Positions 3,836-50,398 of a stretch of 64,000 nt of DNA are shown in pieces (positions within the stretch are counted from its first letter, which is position 1; the number at the start of each line of letters is the position of its first letter). Below the pieces are notes generated by a model. The model was not told where the DNA came from, made no database searches, and saw only the letters and a list, made by a program, of their open reading frames with translations. Source of the DNA: Candidatus Brennerbacteria bacterium (lineage in GTDB: Bacteria > Patescibacteriota > Minisyncoccia > UBA6257 > GWB1-50-10); assembly GCA_016183535.1 (NCBI GenBank), contig JACPEK010000002.1:1382-65381 (forward strand), in the 5' to 3' direction. The translations under genes and the position numbers were made by a program.

Positions 3836-4037
3836 AAATGGCGGATAGTATAGCTGATTTTCTGTTTCTTTTCCATAAAAAACGGGTAGCGTGAATTTTC
3901 ACGCTACCCACCGAGAACATCCTTCATCGCAGTGTGCAACTGCGCGCAACATCCACTTGCGGGCCCATCTCATTTCAACCACCTCCTCCTTCCCAAGGTT
4001 CTGTGTTTACTCTAGCAAACGCGTCAAGAGCGTCTTT

Positions 4038-42311: not shown

Positions 42312-43193
42312 TCAATGAATTCTGAATTTTCCATTTTCTTCCGTGATCGTGCCTTCGAGTGTAAGCATCGTAAGATGGGTGAGCACGATATTGGGCTCCA
42401 GTGTAGTGAGTGCCGCTATTTTGTCAACGGAAAGAGGTTCGCGTGCCGTGATGAGCGCCGCGAAAACGGGGTTCGAAACGGCGCGGGGTTCGGTGAGACG
42501 TTCGGCGCGCGCGGACTTGCTCGCCAAAGCTTCCGCGACGGCGGGGAGGTCTTCTAAGAGATCTTTCGCGTTTCGTATGAGCCGCGCTCCTTCGCGAATG
42601 AGCATATGCGATCCTTCGTAGTGCGGGTGATCGGCGGGACCCGGCATGACGAACACTTCGCGTCCTTGGTTTGCGGCATGGCGCGCGGTCGCCAAAGCGC
42701 CCGAGGCGATCGGAGCTTCGACGATTATGACGGCGTCCGCGAGTCCGCTGATAATACGGTTCCGTGCGAGAAACTGGTTCGGGTAGGCGGGAGTTCCCGC
42801 GGGATATTCGGAAATAATCGCGCCGCGCACTTCAATGCGCCGCCCCAACGATTCGTGGGAAGAGGGATAGATCGTATCGGCGCCACACCCGAGGACCGCC
42901 ACCGTGATTCCTTCGGCGTCCAACGCTCCTTCGTGCGCGGCGGCGTCGACACCGAGCGCGAGGCCAGAGACGATCACCGCGCCGCGATTTCCGAGCTCGC
43001 GGGCGAGCGTACGTGCGCGCGCCCGCCCCTCATGGGTGGCTTTTCGCGTGCCGACTATCGCGATCACAGGGACGTCGTCTTGCGGAAGCGTGCCGCGCAC
43101 ATAAAGCGTGGTTGGTGGATCGGCGATTTCCTTGAGTCGAGTGGGATAAACGCTGTCATAGCGTGAAACAGCGTATATGTTTTTTACCTCCAT
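42312..43193 (-). CDS. dprA: DNA processing protein DprA (Smf)
   Basis: Rossmann-like DprA domain GLALGVDAAAHEGAL...; C-terminal winged-helix-like tail. Confidence 0.88.
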   Translation of the reverse strand: MEVKNIYAVSRYDSVYPTRLKEIADPPTTLYVRGTLPQDDVPVIAIVGTRKATHEGRARARTLARELGNRGAVIVSGLALGVDAAAHEGALDAEGITVAVLGCGADTIYPSSHESLGRRIEVRGAIISEYPAGTPAYPNQFLARNRIISGLADAVIIVEAPIASGALATARHAANQGREVFVMPGPADHPHYEGSHMLIREGARLIRNAKDLLEDLPAVAEALASKSARAERLTEPRAVSNPVFAALITAREPLSVDKIAALTTLEPNIVLTHLTMLTLEGTITEENGKFRIH

Positions 43194-44725: not shown

Positions 44726-46582
44726 ATGAAACGAGAACTTATCGCGAGCGCGTTGATACTCTTTGTCGGCATCGTGGTCGCGGGAGCGGTGGCGGTCGTG
44801 CCGGCACTCGCGCAAGAAGGGAATGTGGCGAAGATCGAGTTTCCCGTCGCGGAGCTTGGCAATTGCGGGAGCGAGCAGGCGTGCAAAACCTATTGCGACG
44901 ATCCTGCGCACATCAAAGCGTGTGTGAATTTCGCGGAGCAGAACGGTCTCATGTCGCGCGCGGAAGCCGCGACCGCGCGGAAGTTCGCGGAAGGCGCATT
45001 CAAAGGCCCCGGCGGATGCACGTCGCGAGAATCGTGCGAATCGTACTGCGACGACGTGAGTCGCATTAATGAATGTGTGGCGTTCGCTGAATCGCAGGGG
45101 TTTCTCCCTCCCGAAGAATTAGCGGAGGTAAAACAGGTGCAATCCGCCATTGCGCGGGGCGTGGTGCCGCCCGCGTGCGGGAACAAGCGCGCGTGTGAAA
45201 GTTACTGCCGCGCGCCCGCGCACATGCAGGAATGTATCGCGTTCGGCGAAGCGGCTGGCTTCATCAAGGGGCAGGAATTGGAAGATGCGAAGAAAGTTTT
45301 GGGCGCGATAGAGAAAGGCGTAACCCCGCCCCCGTGCGGCGGGAAAAAAGAGTGCGATACCTACTGCGGAGAGGAAGCGAATTTCCCGCAGTGTATCGCG
45401 TTCGCGGAGGCCGCGGGGTTCATGTCGAAGGAAGAAGTTGCAATAGCAAAGAAGACGGGCGGGAAAGGCCCTGGCGGGTGCCGCGGCGAAGAATGTAAAA
45501 CCTATTGCGACAATCCCGCGAATCAGGGAATATGCTTCGCCTTCGCGAAGGAACATGGCCTCTTGAAACAGGAGGATCTTCAAAGGATGGAGGAGGGGAA
45601 GGCAAAGTTTGCGGAAGGGCTCCGGCAGGCGCCGCCCGAGGTGGCGGAGTGCTTGAAATCAACGGTAGGCGAAGAAGTATTGAACAAGCTTGCCACGGAG
45701 GGCGGTATGCCCCCGCGGGACCTGGGCGAGAAAATGCGCGCGTGTTTCGAGAATTTCAGACCTCGCCCGTCCGAAGAGTTCCGCGAAGGTGGGCCCTCGC
45801 AGGGGAATTTTCAAGGGCCGCCCTCGTTCGGAGAAGGTTTTGGTGAATCGCAGGGCGCATTCAGCGGCCCGGGCGGATGCACGAGTCCGGAAGAGTGCCG
45901 TTCCTACTGCGAATCGAATCCGGAGGCGTGCGCTAACTTTGGCGGCGGGATGATAAGGGAAGGAAGAGAAATTCCGCGTCCCGGCGAAGTTCCTCATTTC
46001 GAAGACGGGTTTCAAAGGGGTCAGTTCCCTGCATGTTCATCGCCCGAAGAGTGCAAACAGCAGTTCGAGGGTCGGGGCGGTTTCCCGGGCGGAACATCGG
46101 AGGGAGCGTTTCCGGTTCCTCCCAACAACATGATGCCGCAGGAGTTTCAAAAACAGTTTGGTGATCAATACCGCGCGGAATTTGAAAAACAATATCAACA
46201 AGGAAATATGCTGCCTGCGGGTCTTTCTCCGCAATATCCGCAAGGAGCGATGCCGTCTGGTGTGATGATGCCGCAGTCGCCGATGCGGGAGTTTCAGGGC
46301 GCGCCGTATCCCGCGCCGGGCGCGTATCCGCAACCGACCGGCGGAACCTATCCCTCACCGAGCGCTTATCCTTCAGGTGCAGAAAGTTTCCAGCAGTATC
46401 AGCAGTATCAAGGAACGACCGGCGGCTATCCGCCTGCCCCGACCGGAGCGTCGGGACCGCCACCTTCTGGTGAATTTAACGCGCCGCCGCCCGAGTTTCA
46501 AAGCGCGCCGCCGCCGCCTCCTTCAAGCTTGGGTCCGCAGACGCTCCTCGGTCTCTTCCTCAACATCTTCCGCGGCGAGTAG
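44726..46582 (+). CDS. Secreted cysteine-rich repeat protein (at least 6 repeats of ~50 aa, C-x4-C-x3-C-x8-9-C) with a C-terminal Q/P/Y/G low-complexity tail
   Basis: Signal peptide ending ALAQEG. Repeat units include GxCxSxExCxxYCDxPxHxxxCxxFAExxGF. The last ~200 aa are proline/glutamine rich. Confidence 0.7.
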   Translation: MKRELIASALILFVGIVVAGAVAVVPALAQEGNVAKIEFPVAELGNCGSEQACKTYCDDPAHIKACVNFAEQNGLMSRAEAATARKFAEGAFKGPGGCTSRESCESYCDDVSRINECVAFAESQGFLPPEELAEVKQVQSAIARGVVPPACGNKRACESYCRAPAHMQECIAFGEAAGFIKGQELEDAKKVLGAIEKGVTPPPCGGKKECDTYCGEEANFPQCIAFAEAAGFMSKEEVAIAKKTGGKGPGGCRGEECKTYCDNPANQGICFAFAKEHGLLKQEDLQRMEEGKAKFAEGLRQAPPEVAECLKSTVGEEVLNKLATEGGMPPRDLGEKMRACFENFRPRPSEEFREGGPSQGNFQGPPSFGEGFGESQGAFSGPGGCTSPEECRSYCESNPEACANFGGGMIREGREIPRPGEVPHFEDGFQRGQFPACSSPEECKQQFEGRGGFPGGTSEGAFPVPPNNMMPQEFQKQFGDQYRAEFEKQYQQGNMLPAGLSPQYPQGAMPSGVMMPQSPMREFQGAPYPAPGAYPQPTGGTYPSPSAYPSGAESFQQYQQYQGTTGGYPPAPTGASGPPPSGEFNAPPPEFQSAPPPPPSSLGPQTLLGLFLNIFRGE

Positions 46583-46675: not shown

Positions 46676-47170
46676 ATGACAAGGAAAGGGGTAAAACTAT
46701 TGAACGTAAAACCGTTCCGGGAGACCTCGGGGTTCTGCGGACCCGCGTCGCTCAAAATGGTACTCGCGTATTACGGTGTGCGGAAGTCCGAGCGCGCGCT
46801 CGCACGCCTTGCGGGTGCCACGCGAAGTCAGGGCGTGGAAGCGCCGGGTCTCGTGAAAGCGGCGCGACGGCTGGGGTTTATCGCGCGCATCAAGGACCGC
46901 GCGACGCTCGCGGACATCAAAAAGTACATAAGGAAGTGCATCCCCGTTATCGTGGACTGGTTTTCTAATGACGACGGCCATTATTCGGTGGTGGTCGGCA
47001 TCACAAAGAGCACTATCTATCTCCAGGATCCGGAAATCGGGCGGGTGCGGGCAATGGACACGAAGACATTCAAGCGGGTGTGGTTTGATTTTCCCGGCGA
47101 CATCCTCCGCTCCAAAAACGCGGTGGTTCTTCAGCGTATGCTCGTGGTCCGCCGTTCGGGCAAAAATTAA
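46676..47170 (+). CDS. Standalone peptidase C39-like (papain-fold) domain protein
   Basis: Catalytic Cys context SGFCGPASLKMVLAYYG and His context DGHYSVVVG. 164 aa with no ABC-transporter domain. Confidence 0.65.
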   Translation: MTRKGVKLLNVKPFRETSGFCGPASLKMVLAYYGVRKSERALARLAGATRSQGVEAPGLVKAARRLGFIARIKDRATLADIKKYIRKCIPVIVDWFSNDDGHYSVVVGITKSTIYLQDPEIGRVRAMDTKTFKRVWFDFPGDILRSKNAVVLQRMLVVRRSGKN

Positions 47171-47195: not shown

Positions 47196-47909
47196 TTAAT
47201 GAAGCGCTTCCTTGATTTGTTCGCGGACTTCTTTGCTGGCACGCAGGACGGGATTTTTCGAGGCGACCGCTATGACTCTTCCTTTTGCGTCGAAAACGTA
47301 ATCGTCCAGATACACGCCATTGCACACCTGACATTGCGGTATCGTGTTCGAGAGGGCGAGAGGTTTATGCGGATCCATATGCCCCTGTTGGAGCGCTGTT
47401 GTTTTGCCGGGCTCAAGAAAATTTGGCTTGTGTTCTTGTGAGCCGCACGTGGCGCAACGGAACCCGTACACTACTTTAAGTTGTGCAAAATCTTTTGCGG
47501 CAATACGCCCCGCGCGTTTCAGCGATTTGAAGAGAAACGTAGGCTTCGGACTTTCGGTAGTGATGAGAATATGGTAGCCGCTCGGCACCACTTCTTTTTT
47601 GTTCTGATATTTGTCGCCTTTATTAAGCACATACCATCCGTCGCTCGCCAGATGACGAACTTGCTGGTCTTTGCCCGCTTTCGGATTTACGCTCGCTACA
47701 AATGACGAAATGGTGTCTTTGTGGACGAGCGCGCCCTTGTTCTTCCGCAGGAAAATGAGCCACAAGGCTTTTATACTGTTCCTCGCCGGGAACTTCACGC
47801 TGTACGGCGAGAGGTGGGTTTTGTGTTCTGCTTCGAGTTTTCGGTACCAACTTTCTATTTCATCGGGGGACATATACACATGCCCTCCTTGCTTATCCAG
47901 TTTTTTCAT
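47196..47909 (-). CDS. HNH (His-Me finger) endonuclease, putative Type II restriction enzyme
   Basis: CATCGS...QQGHMDPHKP...NTIPQCQVCN (CxxC - H-x-DPH - N - CxxC). It overlaps the upstream methyltransferase gene by 17 nt in an AT-rich island. Confidence 0.6.
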   Translation of the reverse strand: MKKLDKQGGHVYMSPDEIESWYRKLEAEHKTHLSPYSVKFPARNSIKALWLIFLRKNKGALVHKDTISSFVASVNPKAGKDQQVRHLASDGWYVLNKGDKYQNKKEVVPSGYHILITTESPKPTFLFKSLKRAGRIAAKDFAQLKVVYGFRCATCGSQEHKPNFLEPGKTTALQQGHMDPHKPLALSNTIPQCQVCNGVYLDDYVFDAKGRVIAVASKNPVLRASKEVREQIKEALH

Positions 47910-49431
47910 AGTTTTTTAAACGCTTCTCCGCAATGGCGAAGTATTTTTTCTCTATTTCAAAACCGATGAATTTCCTATTTTTTCTCAAGGCGGCGACTCC
48001 TGTAGTGCCGCTTCCCATGAAGGGGTCGAAAACCGTTTGTTTCGGGGAGGTGAATATCTCAATCAGCCGCTCCATAAGGTCTATCGGTTTTATAGTCATG
48101 TGGTCAATGAGTTTTCTTGAGTTCGGTTTTTTATAGTTCAGCACGGTCGTTTGTTGCGATTCGGGAAAATCCGTTTGGATAAGTCCCGTGCGCCATGTGA
48201 GCCAGTTTTCGACGAATGTCCCTTCTTTCGGCTTGTGCGCGAGCAGAATCGCCTCGAATTTCGGTCGTAGTTGAGGGGTTTTTCTGTTTTCAAGGCTCTT
48301 GATAATCTGCTCTTTTTCGTGCGCGGGGATCTTCATCTTTTTCACGAAGTGGTTTTGAGTGAACGCTTTTCCTTGCCCGCCGTTATGCTCCCATATCAGC
48401 ATATCCCGTATTTCAAAACCGGCGTTTTCGGCCGCGAGCGCGAGACGGTGGAAGAGTCTTCCCTGCGAAAATGAGATCATAAATCCTCCGGGCTTGAGCA
48501 CTCGTAACGCTTCGTGGAAAACTTTGGTGAAAAATTTTTCGAGCTTTTTTCCTTGTTCAGGATCGAATTTCATGCCTACCGGGAGGCCTTGTATCGCTCC
48601 GGCCCTTGCCGATTTTTGTTTCAGTTTGGCATCCGACCACTCGTTGTCCATCCCATCAAGAAAATAAGGGGGATCGGTGGCGATAAAATCTACGCTGTTC
48701 GTGTCAATACTTTTGAATGCGTCCAAGCAGTCAGCGAGATAAATTGAGACGTTACGCCAAGTTTTTTTATCAACGATCTTTTTCCCGCTCGTTTTCTCGG
48801 CGACGCGTTCCGGTGTTATTGCGGGCGCGGATTTTTTGTTTCGGATAACGTCGACAAAAACACCTTGGATTGCAAAGTCCTTTTTTCCCCACTTGACGAT
48901 GATCGGCTCGAAGTTTTTGTTCGCGGGCTGAAGGCGAATTTGGTTCCTCTCCTTGTAGTAAGTTTTCAAAGTAGTGTCATAGTTATCGATGAGCGCGACC
49001 ACCTTCTGCCCGTTCTCCGCGACCGATTGATGGCGAACCAATATGATGTCGCTGTCATTGATATTTTCTTCGACCATACTCTCGCCTTGCACGCGCAACG
49101 CGTACACGTTGCCCGCATTCGGAATCCGGTTCGCGGGGACGGCGATCGTTTCGGTGGGTGTATCGAAGAGCGTGAGCGGTTGTCCGGCAACGATGGTGCC
49201 GAGTAGGGGAATTTGAACCATGGAGGTTGCTTCAAATATCTGCACCCCTCTTCGTTGGTTTTTGTTCAGCTGAAGGTATCCCGCGTCCTCCAAATTTTGG
49301 AGATGTTCATGCACAGTGCCGACCGCTCGCTTGAGGCCGGCGGCTATCTCGGGGATGGAAGGGGAGTATCCGCGCCTCCGCGCGTATTTAGTAACAAAGT
49401 CGAGCACCTCTTTTTTCTTATCGGTGAGCAT
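47893..49431 (-). CDS. Fusion protein: full-length LexA-like repressor (wHTH plus S24 autopeptidase) joined to a beta-class N6A/N4C DNA methyltransferase
   Basis: aa 1-205 form a LexA domain (MLTDKKKEVLDFV...PSIPEIAAGL; IPLLGTIVAGQP; GESM Ser and KTYY Lys). From aa ~225 onward it is an MTase (SVDFIATDPPYF motif IV, FDPFMGSGTT motif I). It is a single 512-codon ORF with no internal stop. Confidence 0.65.
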   Translation of the reverse strand: MLTDKKKEVLDFVTKYARRRGYSPSIPEIAAGLKRAVGTVHEHLQNLEDAGYLQLNKNQRRGVQIFEATSMVQIPLLGTIVAGQPLTLFDTPTETIAVPANRIPNAGNVYALRVQGESMVEENINDSDIILVRHQSVAENGQKVVALIDNYDTTLKTYYKERNQIRLQPANKNFEPIIVKWGKKDFAIQGVFVDVIRNKKSAPAITPERVAEKTSGKKIVDKKTWRNVSIYLADCLDAFKSIDTNSVDFIATDPPYFLDGMDNEWSDAKLKQKSARAGAIQGLPVGMKFDPEQGKKLEKFFTKVFHEALRVLKPGGFMISFSQGRLFHRLALAAENAGFEIRDMLIWEHNGGQGKAFTQNHFVKKMKIPAHEKEQIIKSLENRKTPQLRPKFEAILLAHKPKEGTFVENWLTWRTGLIQTDFPESQQTTVLNYKKPNSRKLIDHMTIKPIDLMERLIEIFTSPKQTVFDPFMGSGTTGVAALRKNRKFIGFEIEKKYFAIAEKRLKNYEKTG

Positions 49432-49537
49432 AACTTTCGTCTTCTTTCAGTATGTTATAATTCTACTAAACCGACCCGAAAGAAAACCGAAAGTCTGTGG
49501 ATAACTAAAAGGTCGTTTAGATTAAAGCATTATTAAC

Positions 49538-49660
49538 ATGGTTGAAGAAAATGATACCATTGGTGAACTTCGTCAGCAGTTCAATGAACTCGAAAAGCGA
49601 GTAGTAACTATTGAGGAAAAGTTGGCTGAATTAGAGAAGGAGGGACAATCTCAAAACTGA
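49538..49660 (+). CDS. Hypothetical 40-aa coiled-coil peptide (not in the ORF track, below 60 aa)
   Basis: MVEENDTIGELRQQFNELEKRVVTIEEKLAELEKEGQSQN. AT-rich, just beyond the R-M operon on the opposite strand. Confidence 0.25.
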   Translation: MVEENDTIGELRQQFNELEKRVVTIEEKLAELEKEGQSQN

Positions 49661-49769: not shown

Positions 49770-50078
49770 TTGACTTCCAAGCCGGGGCAGCCCGGAATTT
49801 GTTCTATGTCACAAGGAATCGACCTGAAAACAGCTGCATATAGATACGCTAAGAATTCTATAAGAACGTTTGTGGAGGGAGGGAAATACGCCCGTGACAA
49901 AAAACCAAGGAGTATAGCTTGGTTGTTAGGAGTTGTTGGAGAATCTGGAGTCAGTAGGGATGATTTGGTGAGAATTTTTTCGGAGTTAAGCACTTACCCT
50001 ATGGACGCAGAAGGGAGAATTAGGTTTGAAGAGGGCAAACGAAAGATCGAAGAAATGATCGAAAGGCGAACTCGATGA
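49770..50078 (+). CDS. Hypothetical protein
   Basis: 102 aa ORF (alternative start 49806, MSQGIDLKT) with no recognisable domain, inside the AT-rich island. Confidence 0.35.
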   Translation: MTSKPGQPGICSMSQGIDLKTAAYRYAKNSIRTFVEGGKYARDKKPRSIAWLLGVVGESGVSRDDLVRIFSELSTYPMDAEGRIRFEEGKRKIEEMIERRTR

Positions 50079-50398
50079 ATTCGACAATCACAGTTTGTGA
50101 GAATTGCAAAAAGGAAACCGACCAGGTTATCCTCACCGCTTTTGTGGGTGACAAGAAGTTAATCGAACCTCTTGAAAGTGCGCCGTTTAGGTGTGGTCGT
50201 TGCAAGCGGTCTCTGGCACCGAATGAGAAGTTCTTTAGAGTTACTGCGACTATTTTATATGTTTGCAAAAATGGCCACACCGGTGATCATCCAGACGTTG
50301 AGGCTAAAATGGATGAGGATTCAAGAGAGTGGGAAGGGCATTTTGTGTGTGAAGAATGTGGAGAGGAAATGAAAATCGATGGAGAAAGAGTAGGGTAA
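50075..50398 (+). CDS. Zinc-ribbon protein with four CxxC pairs
   Basis: CENC...CGRC...C-x8-H...CEEC; 107 aa. Its start overlaps the previous stop (ATGA). Confidence 0.45.
   Translation: MNSTITVCENCKKETDQVILTAFVGDKKLIEPLESAPFRCGRCKRSLAPNEKFFRVTATILYVCKNGHTGDHPDVEAKMDEDSREWEGHFVCEECGEEMKIDGERVG

Follow-up and report, generated by a model that had tools for sequence, protein, structure and literature searches.

In the 64,000-nt stretch of a Candidatus Brennerbacteria genome analysed here (contig JACPEK010000002.1; hereafter the window), the minus strand encoded a 512-aa protein in which a complete, apparently self-cleaving SOS repressor, LexA, was joined in frame to a DNA methyltransferase (47893..49431). 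The next gene encoded a putative HNH-fold nuclease. Sequence comparisons place the fusion in a large Patescibacteria-wide family, in which related LexA modules with operator specificities of their own are combined with at least 18 unrelated-to-distant methyltransferase families. We hypothesize, with a probability of roughly 60%, that the LexA module autorepresses the operon of a restriction-modification (R-M) system, comprising the methyltransferase (M) gene with or without the restriction endonuclease (R) gene, and that RecA-stimulated cleavage of this module couples modification and restriction to the SOS response.

The open reading frame (ORF) of the fusion gene was uninterrupted over its 512 codons, as stated in the initial annotation, and ended with a stop codon at 47893–47895 (coordinates refer to the minus strand unless indicated). 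Pfam domains covered residues 2–62 (LexA_DNA_bind), 75–193 (Peptidase_S24) and 247–503 (N6_N4_Mtase). The N-terminal half scored 160.4 bits against the NCBIfam lexA equivalog TIGR00498 (cut-off 110.95), with model positions 4–202 of 203 aligned to residues 2–199. It comprised a LexA winged-helix DNA-binding domain (residues 1–66, 49234..49431; PF01726 over residues 2–62) and an S24 autopeptidase/dimerisation domain (residues 75–196, 48844..49209; PF00717, E = 2e-24). The recognition helix, within 49234..49431, included G38-T-V-H-E42-H, of which residue 42 co-varied with the operator. In an alignment with E. coli LexA, the nucleophile and the general base of the S24 catalytic dyad were both present, Ser118 (GESM, codon 49078–49080) corresponding to Ser119 and Lys156 (codon 48964–48966) to Lys156. 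The E. coli autocleavage site Ala84-Gly85 corresponded to Ala82-Gly83 (IVAGQP, codons 49183..49188). The complete LexA and the intact cleavage site envisaged in the initial annotation were thereby both recovered. Ala-Gly, Ser and Lys were each invariant in 75 of 75 LexA fusions, among which overall identity dropped to ~50%. The LexA half is thus complete with intact self-cleavage residues, and self-cleavage is predicted. Residues 197–225 (48757..48843) formed a variable linker to the methyltransferase, with low identity and low confidence in the AlphaFold 2 model. This model (mean predicted local distance difference test score, pLDDT, 81.7) showed a winged helix, an S24 beta-domain, a disordered linker (pLDDT <50 over residues 201–217) and a well-folded methyltransferase. 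The linker sequence could not be aligned among fusions, yet the open frame was always kept.

The C-terminal half (residues 226–512, 47896..48756) was a beta-class N6/N4 amino-methyltransferase (PF01555, E = 4e-38), in agreement with the earlier assignment. The DPPY motif (residues 253–256, codons 48664–48675) was located ahead of FMGSG (residues 471–475; FMGSGTT codons 48001–48021), which is the circularly permuted motif order of the beta class. This half matched the PADLOC model MTase_II (E = 7e-52), and its nearest sequence relatives in the PDB were the DpnA-type, CcrM and MboIIA adenine methyltransferases along with PvuII and RsrI methyltransferases. The fusion's methyltransferase is probably N6-adenine-specific. 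Many stand-alone methyltransferases of ~290 aa were 65–79% identical to it.

The partner gene (longest ORF 237 aa, 47196..47909) encoded a putative restriction endonuclease with a winged helix and an HNH (beta-beta-alpha-Me, Cys4 zinc) domain. It had initially been described as a 237-aa gene overlapping the fusion gene by 17 nt. The two ORFs do overlap by 17 nt if ATG 47909 is used. This codon lacked a ribosome-binding site, whereas a GGAGGG Shine-Dalgarno sequence (47883..47888, read from the sequence) was present 9 nt 5' of ATG 47873, and the latter start is favoured on these grounds. ATG 47873 was also the start used by an independent gene call in L002, and the conserved part of the protein family begins there. 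The nuclease gene therefore probably starts at ATG 47873 (225 aa), with a 19-nt gap to the fusion gene and no overlap; of the earlier description the ORF overlap stands and the gene boundary is revised. The proposed HNH identity agreed with the predicted fold and with invariant residues, but not with any sequence profile: the 237-aa protein had no match to Pfam, NCBIfam (HNH-family profiles included) or PADLOC models, and no sequence match in the PDB. Its AlphaFold 2 model (pLDDT 91.8) consisted of a winged helix and a beta-beta-alpha domain, in which a beta-hairpin was followed by a helix (~172–199). Fold matches to the HNH domain of Cas9, PacI, McrA, TagI and the HNH domain of ZRANB3 had weak to moderate scores but were consistent. 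Cys152, Cys155, His177, Asn188, Cys193, Cys196 and Asn197 were invariant in the nuclease family (ORF numbering, which equals alignment numbering +1). Based on the model, the partner is a putative HNH-fold nuclease with predicted activity. A sigma-70/terminator scan of the minus strand detected no terminator and no promoter of its own ahead of this gene.

Two independent Logan assemblies and the NCBI metagenome-assembled genome (MAG) contained the identical 512-aa protein (P0001), which carries the label 'repressor LexA [Candidatus Brennerbacteria]' in the MAG. Orthologs with the same architecture shared 66–68% identity with it. A syntenic relative (L003, protein P0002) had the same LexA-M-R arrangement at the same site, next to a C39 peptidase with 87% identity. 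The initial annotation had proposed horizontal acquisition; a recent event of this kind is not evident. An alignment of LexA halves served to search one genome per species (Genome Taxonomy Database representatives). The 80 top-ranking LexA loci originated from 80 different assemblies, all Patescibacteria-type MAGs with one LexA locus per assembly. Complete fusion ORFs of 433–1129 aa accounted for 72 of these loci and three more were fusions cut by contig ends, while only one was a clear stand-alone LexA. Orthologous fusions were to be sought according to the initial annotation; orthologous or analogous fusions exist by the dozen in related species, and its remark that no example was known does not reflect rarity. 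Since the peptide patterns used to find the loci might favour the fused subfamily, two independent samples were added. In an exhaustive phmmer search of residues 1–200 against 1.84 billion cluster representatives, most of the top ~55 hits were 390–840 aa long and carried LexA at residues 1–198; stand-alone LexAs of ~200 aa prevailed only below about 43% identity. Metagenomic contigs chosen by the exact 18-nt operator alone contained 28 full-length fusions versus three stand-alone LexAs in Patescibacteria-type promoter contexts. By these sequence searches, the fusion is the predominant LexA form among the closest relatives of the 512-aa protein. Hundreds of such fusions are already present in public databases under the generic names 'repressor LexA' or 'methyltransferase'. 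A mainly phage- or plasmid-borne element was rejected, as no record among 50,697 phage and 72,556 plasmid genomes covered at least 80% of the fusion and only two contigs in IMG/VR contained it. No description of LexA-methyltransferase fusions was found in the literature; Sanchez-Osuna et al. 2017, on the SOS response of Patescibacteria, may mention them.

Several family members had additional features. A 1129-aa protein (L079:4001-7390) consisted of LexA, a beta-class methyltransferase and a second methyltransferase region with an NPPW motif (gamma-type, type IIG-like), and representatives of 600–840 aa from the exhaustive search (P0399, P0402, P0412 and P0457) suggest more LexA fusions with larger partners. 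Two MAGs from different candidate phyla, a Woesebacteria MAG (L011) and a Wolfebacteria MAG (L012), had identical promoters and fusions that were both 481 aa long, which suggests a very recent horizontal transfer or, alternatively, faulty binning or contamination. The Jorgensenbacteria fusions P0098 and P0104 (L005 and L006) shared a chromosomal site, with NUDIX upstream and Fic downstream. This site held variable defence-like genes, including an AAA_15 ATPase and HNH pair (Septu-like), Mrr_cat and a PIF1 helicase, and looks like a defence island around lexA.

Partner genes were surveyed for 74 complete fusions, two of them from IMG/VR contigs and 72 from genome loci. In 67 cases the fusion gene was tightly abutted by an ORF of 120 aa or more, mostly 190–345 aa. 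This partner was usually convergent with a 3–19-nt overlap, and co-directional in about nine cases, including the window. The partners fell into at least 21 sequence-unrelated clusters. Among 52 partners, Pfam recognised RE_TaqI (6), Endonuclease_7/His-Me (6), RE_MamI (4), MutH-like (3) and RE_HindIII (2) domains, as well as EcoO109I, PvuII and HNH. The methyltransferase halves formed 18 clusters (motifs DPPY, 31; SPPY, 29; DPPF, 8; and variants such as DPDY and DIPY), which mapped almost 1:1 onto the partner clusters (75 fusions), a signature of cognate M-R pairs. The M+R pair of the window also recurred on many contigs as a plain two-gene cassette with a stand-alone methyltransferase of ~290 aa, in line with the R-M architecture noted initially. 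The block is predicted to be a type II R-M cassette, with sequence-specific cleavage and protective methylation.

LexA and methyltransferase halves differed in their relationships. The LexA half of the window was 72–79% identical to those of Jorgensenbacteria fusions whose methyltransferase halves were only 30–37% identical, and orthologs of the window methyltransferase (76–79%) carried LexA halves that were just 58–64% identical. In the comparison with the syntenic relative L003, the methyltransferase was 80% identical, S24 69%, the winged helix 37% and the linker 21%. As its operator, L003 had TCCTGG-N5-TCCTGG instead, with ACCAGGA recurring at an 11-bp period. DNA-binding module and operator appear to have been replaced together between the window and this close relative. 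The GC content of the whole unit, including the LexA part, was 3–5.5 points below that of the flanks in 57 loci. A split version was observed in two of four long contigs, where a separate winged-helix and S24 repressor gene (L213:4192-4869, 225 aa; L215:2943-3494, 183 aa) was located immediately 5' of a stand-alone M in cassettes orthologous to the M+R pair. The putative cleavage site of these repressors was Cys-Gly (ANCGP), as in UmuD. The other two long contigs, L216 and L217, contained M+R without an upstream S24 repressor.

The 106-nt region upstream of the fusion gene contained, in gene orientation, TTATCCACA, the operator O1, candidate -10 hexamers, the operator O2 and the ATG. O1 (49476..49492) was a direct repeat with an 11-bp period, TTTCGG-TTTTC-TTTCGG, just upstream of and overlapping the promoter; the initial annotation had suggested 49432–49520 as the place to look for a LexA box. 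The candidate -10 hexamers TAGAAT (49460–49465) and TATAAC (49454–49459), together spanning 49454..49465, matched the position of TATAAT in homologous promoters and were not called by a consensus scanner because a canonical -35 was lacking. Between the start codon and the -10 region, O2 (49434..49450, plus strand) repeated O1 imperfectly and in inverted orientation; its sequence CTTTCGTCTTCTTTCAG read CTGAAAGAAGACGAAAG in gene orientation, directly before the ATG. An equivalent inverted copy, ACCGAAAGTAAACCGAAA, was present in L005, L007, L008 and L010–L013. The direct repeat was spotted by eye and then quantified. O1 was the only exact copy in 64 kb, with a position weight matrix (PWM) score of 37.2 bits versus 12.6 for the next site. 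The motif occurred within 90 nt 5' of the start codon in 80 of 83 LexA loci, and lexA followed directly downstream in 46 of the 80 metagenomic contigs that contained the exact 18-mer. In PMC7739468, a citing paper, the LexA motif of Patescibacteria is given as a direct repeat. A palindromic LexA box was also considered, but in 81 fusion upstream regions half-sites of 4–5 nt with spacers of 0–12 returned AT-rich noise only. Based on these sequences, the LexA module is predicted to bind O1/O2 and to autorepress its own promoter.

Half-sites varied by lineage (TTTCGG, TTTCTA, TTTCGA, CTACGG, GTTCGG and TCCTGG). Residue 42 of the recognition helix tracked half-site bases 5–6 across 81 loci, with E, Q or D accompanying GG (27 loci) and F, Y or H accompanying TA or GA (54 loci). 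The only departures were one AG/GG site and the L003 call, a chance match. In L013 (CTACGG) and L003 (TCCTGG), changes in the recognition helix matched the operator changes.

Immediately upstream of O1 was the perfect DnaA-box-like 9-mer TTATCCACA (49496..49504). It was the sole exact copy in the window and was exact in 55 of 78 homologous upstream regions (L007–L086), where its density was 5.7 per kb versus 0.028 per kb elsewhere in the loci, a difference of about 200-fold. The 9-mer occurred in either orientation, and many promoters had a second near-copy after the -10. Its placement suggests co-regulation by DnaA or replication status.

Further targets of the module were sought. In the 64-kb window no second LexA box was detected: the best hits, 12.6 and 12.4 bits, were inside the shuffle range (maximum 13.9). 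These secondary hits, neither of them significant, were located 30–50 nt 5' of the topA start codon (42326–42346, plus strand) and 22 nt 5' of the recG start codon (3857–3877, plus strand). Their position before DNA-metabolism genes is suggestive of weak LexA sites. Operators before partner genes or elsewhere in 537 kb of flanks were not enriched, with 15 sites versus 17 in a reversed-sequence control. Among Patescibacteria-type contexts, the exact operator was found at lexA promoters only. In a GC-rich clade outside Patescibacteria (metagenomic contigs L101, L106, L120, L122, L138, L141, L144, L150, L153, L168 and L169), a canonical TTGACT...TAAACT promoter surrounded an identical TTTCGG-TTTTC-TTTCGG box. 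There the box preceded stand-alone LexA genes of 201–213 aa with the same STVHEH helix, and also a PHP-domain (DnaE2-like) polymerase gene and a 190-aa gene. Its presence at genes other than lexA supports the identification of the repeat as a LexA box. The box of this clade would represent a direct-repeat SOS box in another lineage.

The proposed regulatory circuit builds on what was observed: the architecture, conservation of catalytic residues, recurrence, cognate M-R pairing, operator conservation and helix-operator covariation. The S24 domain would dimerise the fusion protein, and the two winged helices would bind the 11-bp-phased TTTCGG-N5-TTTCGG of O1 and the inverted imperfect O2, bracketing the -10 of their own promoter. 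The fusion would in this way autorepress the M gene and, in the window, a co-transcribed HNH endonuclease gene. RecA filaments on single-stranded DNA, arising from damage, self-restriction or possibly phage replication, would stimulate Ser118/Lys156 to cut Ala82-Gly83. Cleavage would free the DNA-binding domain, leave an S24-linker-methyltransferase fragment and derepress the operon. As a net result, modification capacity, and in the window also restriction, would be expected to rise in an SOS-inducible manner. The LexA module would act as a built-in controller, in the role of a controller (C) protein or of the N-terminal helix-turn-helix (HTH) of SsoII-type methyltransferases. In the convergent majority of loci, stronger M transcription should interfere with R, amounting to damage-induced restriction alleviation. 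With a nuclease gene that is mostly convergent and without an operator, SOS control of the methyltransferase is a better fit than a suicide nuclease triggered by SOS.

A number of points weigh against this proposal. DNA binding, self-cleavage, co-transcription and the physiological outcome are all predicted, and the last of these is held loosely. The endonuclease in the window is co-directional, so that antidote and toxin would both rise on derepression; a protective logic suits the convergent majority better than the window locus. The helix-operator covariation is phylogenetically structured, and its counts are not independent events, although the partition is clean. The peptide patterns of the locus search (AENGQK.. 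and SM..ENI) may favour the fused subfamily, and the phmmer set, clustered at 50% identity, over-counts fusions since each methyltransferase type forms its own cluster. Finally, our view of LexA genes and boxes in the source genome is confined to 64 kb.

Alternatively, the protein could be a housekeeping LexA at whose 3' end R-M cassettes have inserted as hitch-hikers, the covalent link being without regulatory meaning. The 3' end of lexA would then be a recombination hot spot or safe harbour that gives a cassette expression and an indispensable partner. We regard this as possible, if less probable than the regulatory circuit, with which it overlaps and is not mutually exclusive. It would account for the equivalog-level TIGR00498 score, the single LexA locus in each of 80 assemblies and the core-chromosome context (recG, dnaG, alaS, fusA and topA). 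Stand-alone 200-aa Patescibacterial LexAs (L149 and L159) share the promoter with DnaA box and operator, and a published SOS network of Patescibacteria with a direct-repeat motif is cited in PMC7739468. However, random insertion would mostly yield separate genes, whereas the in-frame fusion was kept with 18 methyltransferase families. The fast divergence of operator specificity and of the winged helix, even between syntenic relatives (37%, versus 87% for the flanks), is hard to square with a regulator of multiple targets. The Patescibacteria-type exact operator was restricted to lexA, while in the clade with stand-alone LexA the operator also preceded other genes, and the reduced GC content of the unit extended to its LexA part. 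That the fusion arose as an artefact, with a missed stop, a frameshift or a chimeric assembly joining two genes, is extremely improbable. The source is a MAG and a split S24 gene-M-R arrangement does exist (L213 and L215), but the ORF was identical in three independent assemblies, orthologs of the same architecture were 66–68% identical and 72 further complete fusions came from different species. A frameshift or chimera is effectively refuted by this recurrence.

The S24 domain might also serve as a non-cleaving scaffold that only dimerises an HTH-methyltransferase autoregulator, without SOS coupling. Binding of a dimer to the operator would suffice for autoregulation, dimers are common among active beta-class methyltransferases, and there is precedent for LexA-like proteins that have lost RecA-dependent cleavage, which here is predicted. 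We nevertheless consider a scaffold unlikely, since it would not be expected to conserve Ala-Gly, Ser and Lys in 75 of 75 fusions at ~50% identity, nor to reach the full equivalog score. An abortive-infection role, in which cleavage mainly unleashes the HNH nuclease and kills the damaged or infected cell, appears slightly more doubtful still. The window nuclease is directly downstream in the same orientation, with no terminator or promoter detected in between, so derepression should raise its level, and some family members are located among defence genes (the Septu-like AAA_15+HNH pair, Mrr and Fic). Induction, however, would extend to the methyltransferase, which precedes the nuclease on the same transcript. 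In most loci the nuclease is convergent and without an operator, and increased transcription of M would be more likely to hamper R than to help it. Clusters of M and R, moreover, pair as in ordinary cognate type II systems.

Besides its proposed control of the R-M operon, the fusion is probably also the only LexA of the cell. The equivalog score, the one locus per assembly and the promoter shared with stand-alone LexAs speak for a role as global SOS repressor. The fast change of helix and operator between syntenic relatives, the lack of secondary sites and the restriction of exact operators to lexA speak against a large regulon. More broadly, the SOS repressor across Patescibacteria may have become a swappable self-cleaving R-M controller with private operators, often the only LexA, through which activated RecA resets the balance of modification and restriction. 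We advance this wider proposal tentatively, as somewhat less than an even chance. It would constitute an anti-autoimmunity circuit or the type II counterpart of restriction alleviation, and the 'SOS response' of many reduced genomes would be largely or wholly an R-M control circuit.

Known solutions to balancing restriction and modification are C proteins, HTH-bearing methylases, antisense RNAs and, in type I systems, proteolysis of the nuclease after damage. If confirmed, a methyltransferase on a cleavable LexA would be a new solution, with a type II system wired directly to RecA and SOS. It would also show selfish or defence genes taking over a master stress regulator as their modular controller. 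In a very large bacterial radiation, uncultivated and heavily dependent on R-M against phages, the fusion is the predominant LexA form, and it bears on DNA-damage sensing in these reduced genomes and on the meaning of 'SOS response' there. For synthetic biology, the diversified pairs of helix and operator could be a source of orthogonal repressors with a protease switch.

The GC content of the block was 49.2% versus a window mean of 54.6%, at the 5th percentile of 2.2-kb windows, and the right flank was lower still (44–50%). The initial description of the block as much AT-richer than flanks of ~60% GC was thus overstated. Within the fusion gene, the GC content was 52.0% in the LexA part and 46.4% in the methyltransferase part. 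The remainder of the window was ordinary core chromosome of a bacterium of the Candidate Phyla Radiation, with recG, cca, dnaG, alaS, comEC, fusA, topA and tRNAs. An Rfam scan of the window identified tRNAs only, and no non-coding RNA in the block. No ORF for a separate C gene and no C-box were detected between 47196 and 49700. The only small ORF nearby was a divergent one for a 40-aa coiled-coil-like peptide (MVEENDTIGELRQQFNELEKRVVTIEEKLAELEKEGQSQN; 49538–49660, plus strand), called as a gene in both independent assemblies. As the 106-nt intergenic region with the operators lies between this ORF and the fusion gene, the two could be regulated together. On the other side of the block, the plus strand encoded a 618-aa protein with repeated Cys-rich units (C..YC..P.....C..FAE..GF) and a Pro/Gln/Gly-rich tail (44726–46582), followed by a 164-aa C39/C70-type cysteine peptidase (46676–47170). 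This pair also adjoined the R-M block in the syntenic relative, and the former could be a secreted or processed repeat protein. Past the operator region, a 107-aa protein with four CxxC pairs (50075–50398, plus strand) had sub-threshold zinc-ribbon Pfam matches only (LIM, the best, E = 7.5e-5 with no stretch passing alone; double zinc ribbon, E = 0.0055). Its gene was located in a stretch of 44% GC, and the GC dip thus reached ~51250, past the R-M block.

In comparison with known systems, the N-terminal half resembles LexA (TIGR00498, MEROPS S24) in its winged helix, Ala-Gly hinge, Ser/Lys autopeptidase, dimerisation domain and box at its own promoter. The alphaproteobacterial LexA box GTTC-N7-GTTC has the same 11-bp period as the direct repeat of the fusion. 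Unlike LexA, the fusion has about 315 extra C-terminal residues (linker and DNA methyltransferase), its operator specificity varies between close relatives, and no second target was detected in 64 kb. Autorepression by methyltransferases through an N-terminal HTH is an established mode of R-M regulation (PMC3874152). The fusion shares with the SsoII/Ecl18kI/EcoRII/MspI type an N-terminal DNA-binding domain on the methyltransferase and an operator that overlaps the M promoter, replacing a C protein. In the SsoII type, however, a C5-cytosine methyltransferase bears a short HTH extension, the operators are palindromic and the R gene is usually divergent (see PMC3874152), whereas the fusion has a whole LexA with protease domain, a beta-class amino-methyltransferase and a direct-repeat operator, and its DNA-binding domain would be removable by the SOS signal. 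C-protein systems (PvuII, BamHI and Esp1396I) are similar in having a dedicated small-regulon factor whose private operator times M and R and whose specificities diversify, and their C-M-R gene order is matched by the split S24-repressor/M/R arrangement (L213 and L215). C proteins differ in being Xre-type HTH proteins of ~80–100 aa that are encoded by a separate gene, usually activate R and lack a proteolytic switch. The partner nuclease resembles PacI, KpnI, Hpy99I and McrA/TagI in its beta-beta-alpha-Me core with catalytic His and Asn residues, in the two flanking CxxC pairs and in the adjacency of its gene to that of a methyltransferase.

In type I restriction alleviation, HsdR of EcoKI is proteolysed by ClpXP in an SOS-linked manner. 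With this process and with LexA-repressed toxin-antitoxin systems, the fusion shares the concept that damage and repair create unmodified sites and that cells adjust restriction versus modification. LexA-controlled toxin systems are known, symE among others (PMC3874152). Regulation in these cases differs in being either post-translational on the nuclease or exerted through an ordinary LexA box in trans. To our knowledge, none of them uses a LexA-methyltransferase polypeptide. LexA, beta-class methyltransferases, HNH endonucleases and HTH-methyltransferase autoregulation are thus known parts; the combination not found in the literature is the joining of a whole, predicted self-cleaving LexA to R-M methyltransferases as a phylum-wide modular family with private operators.

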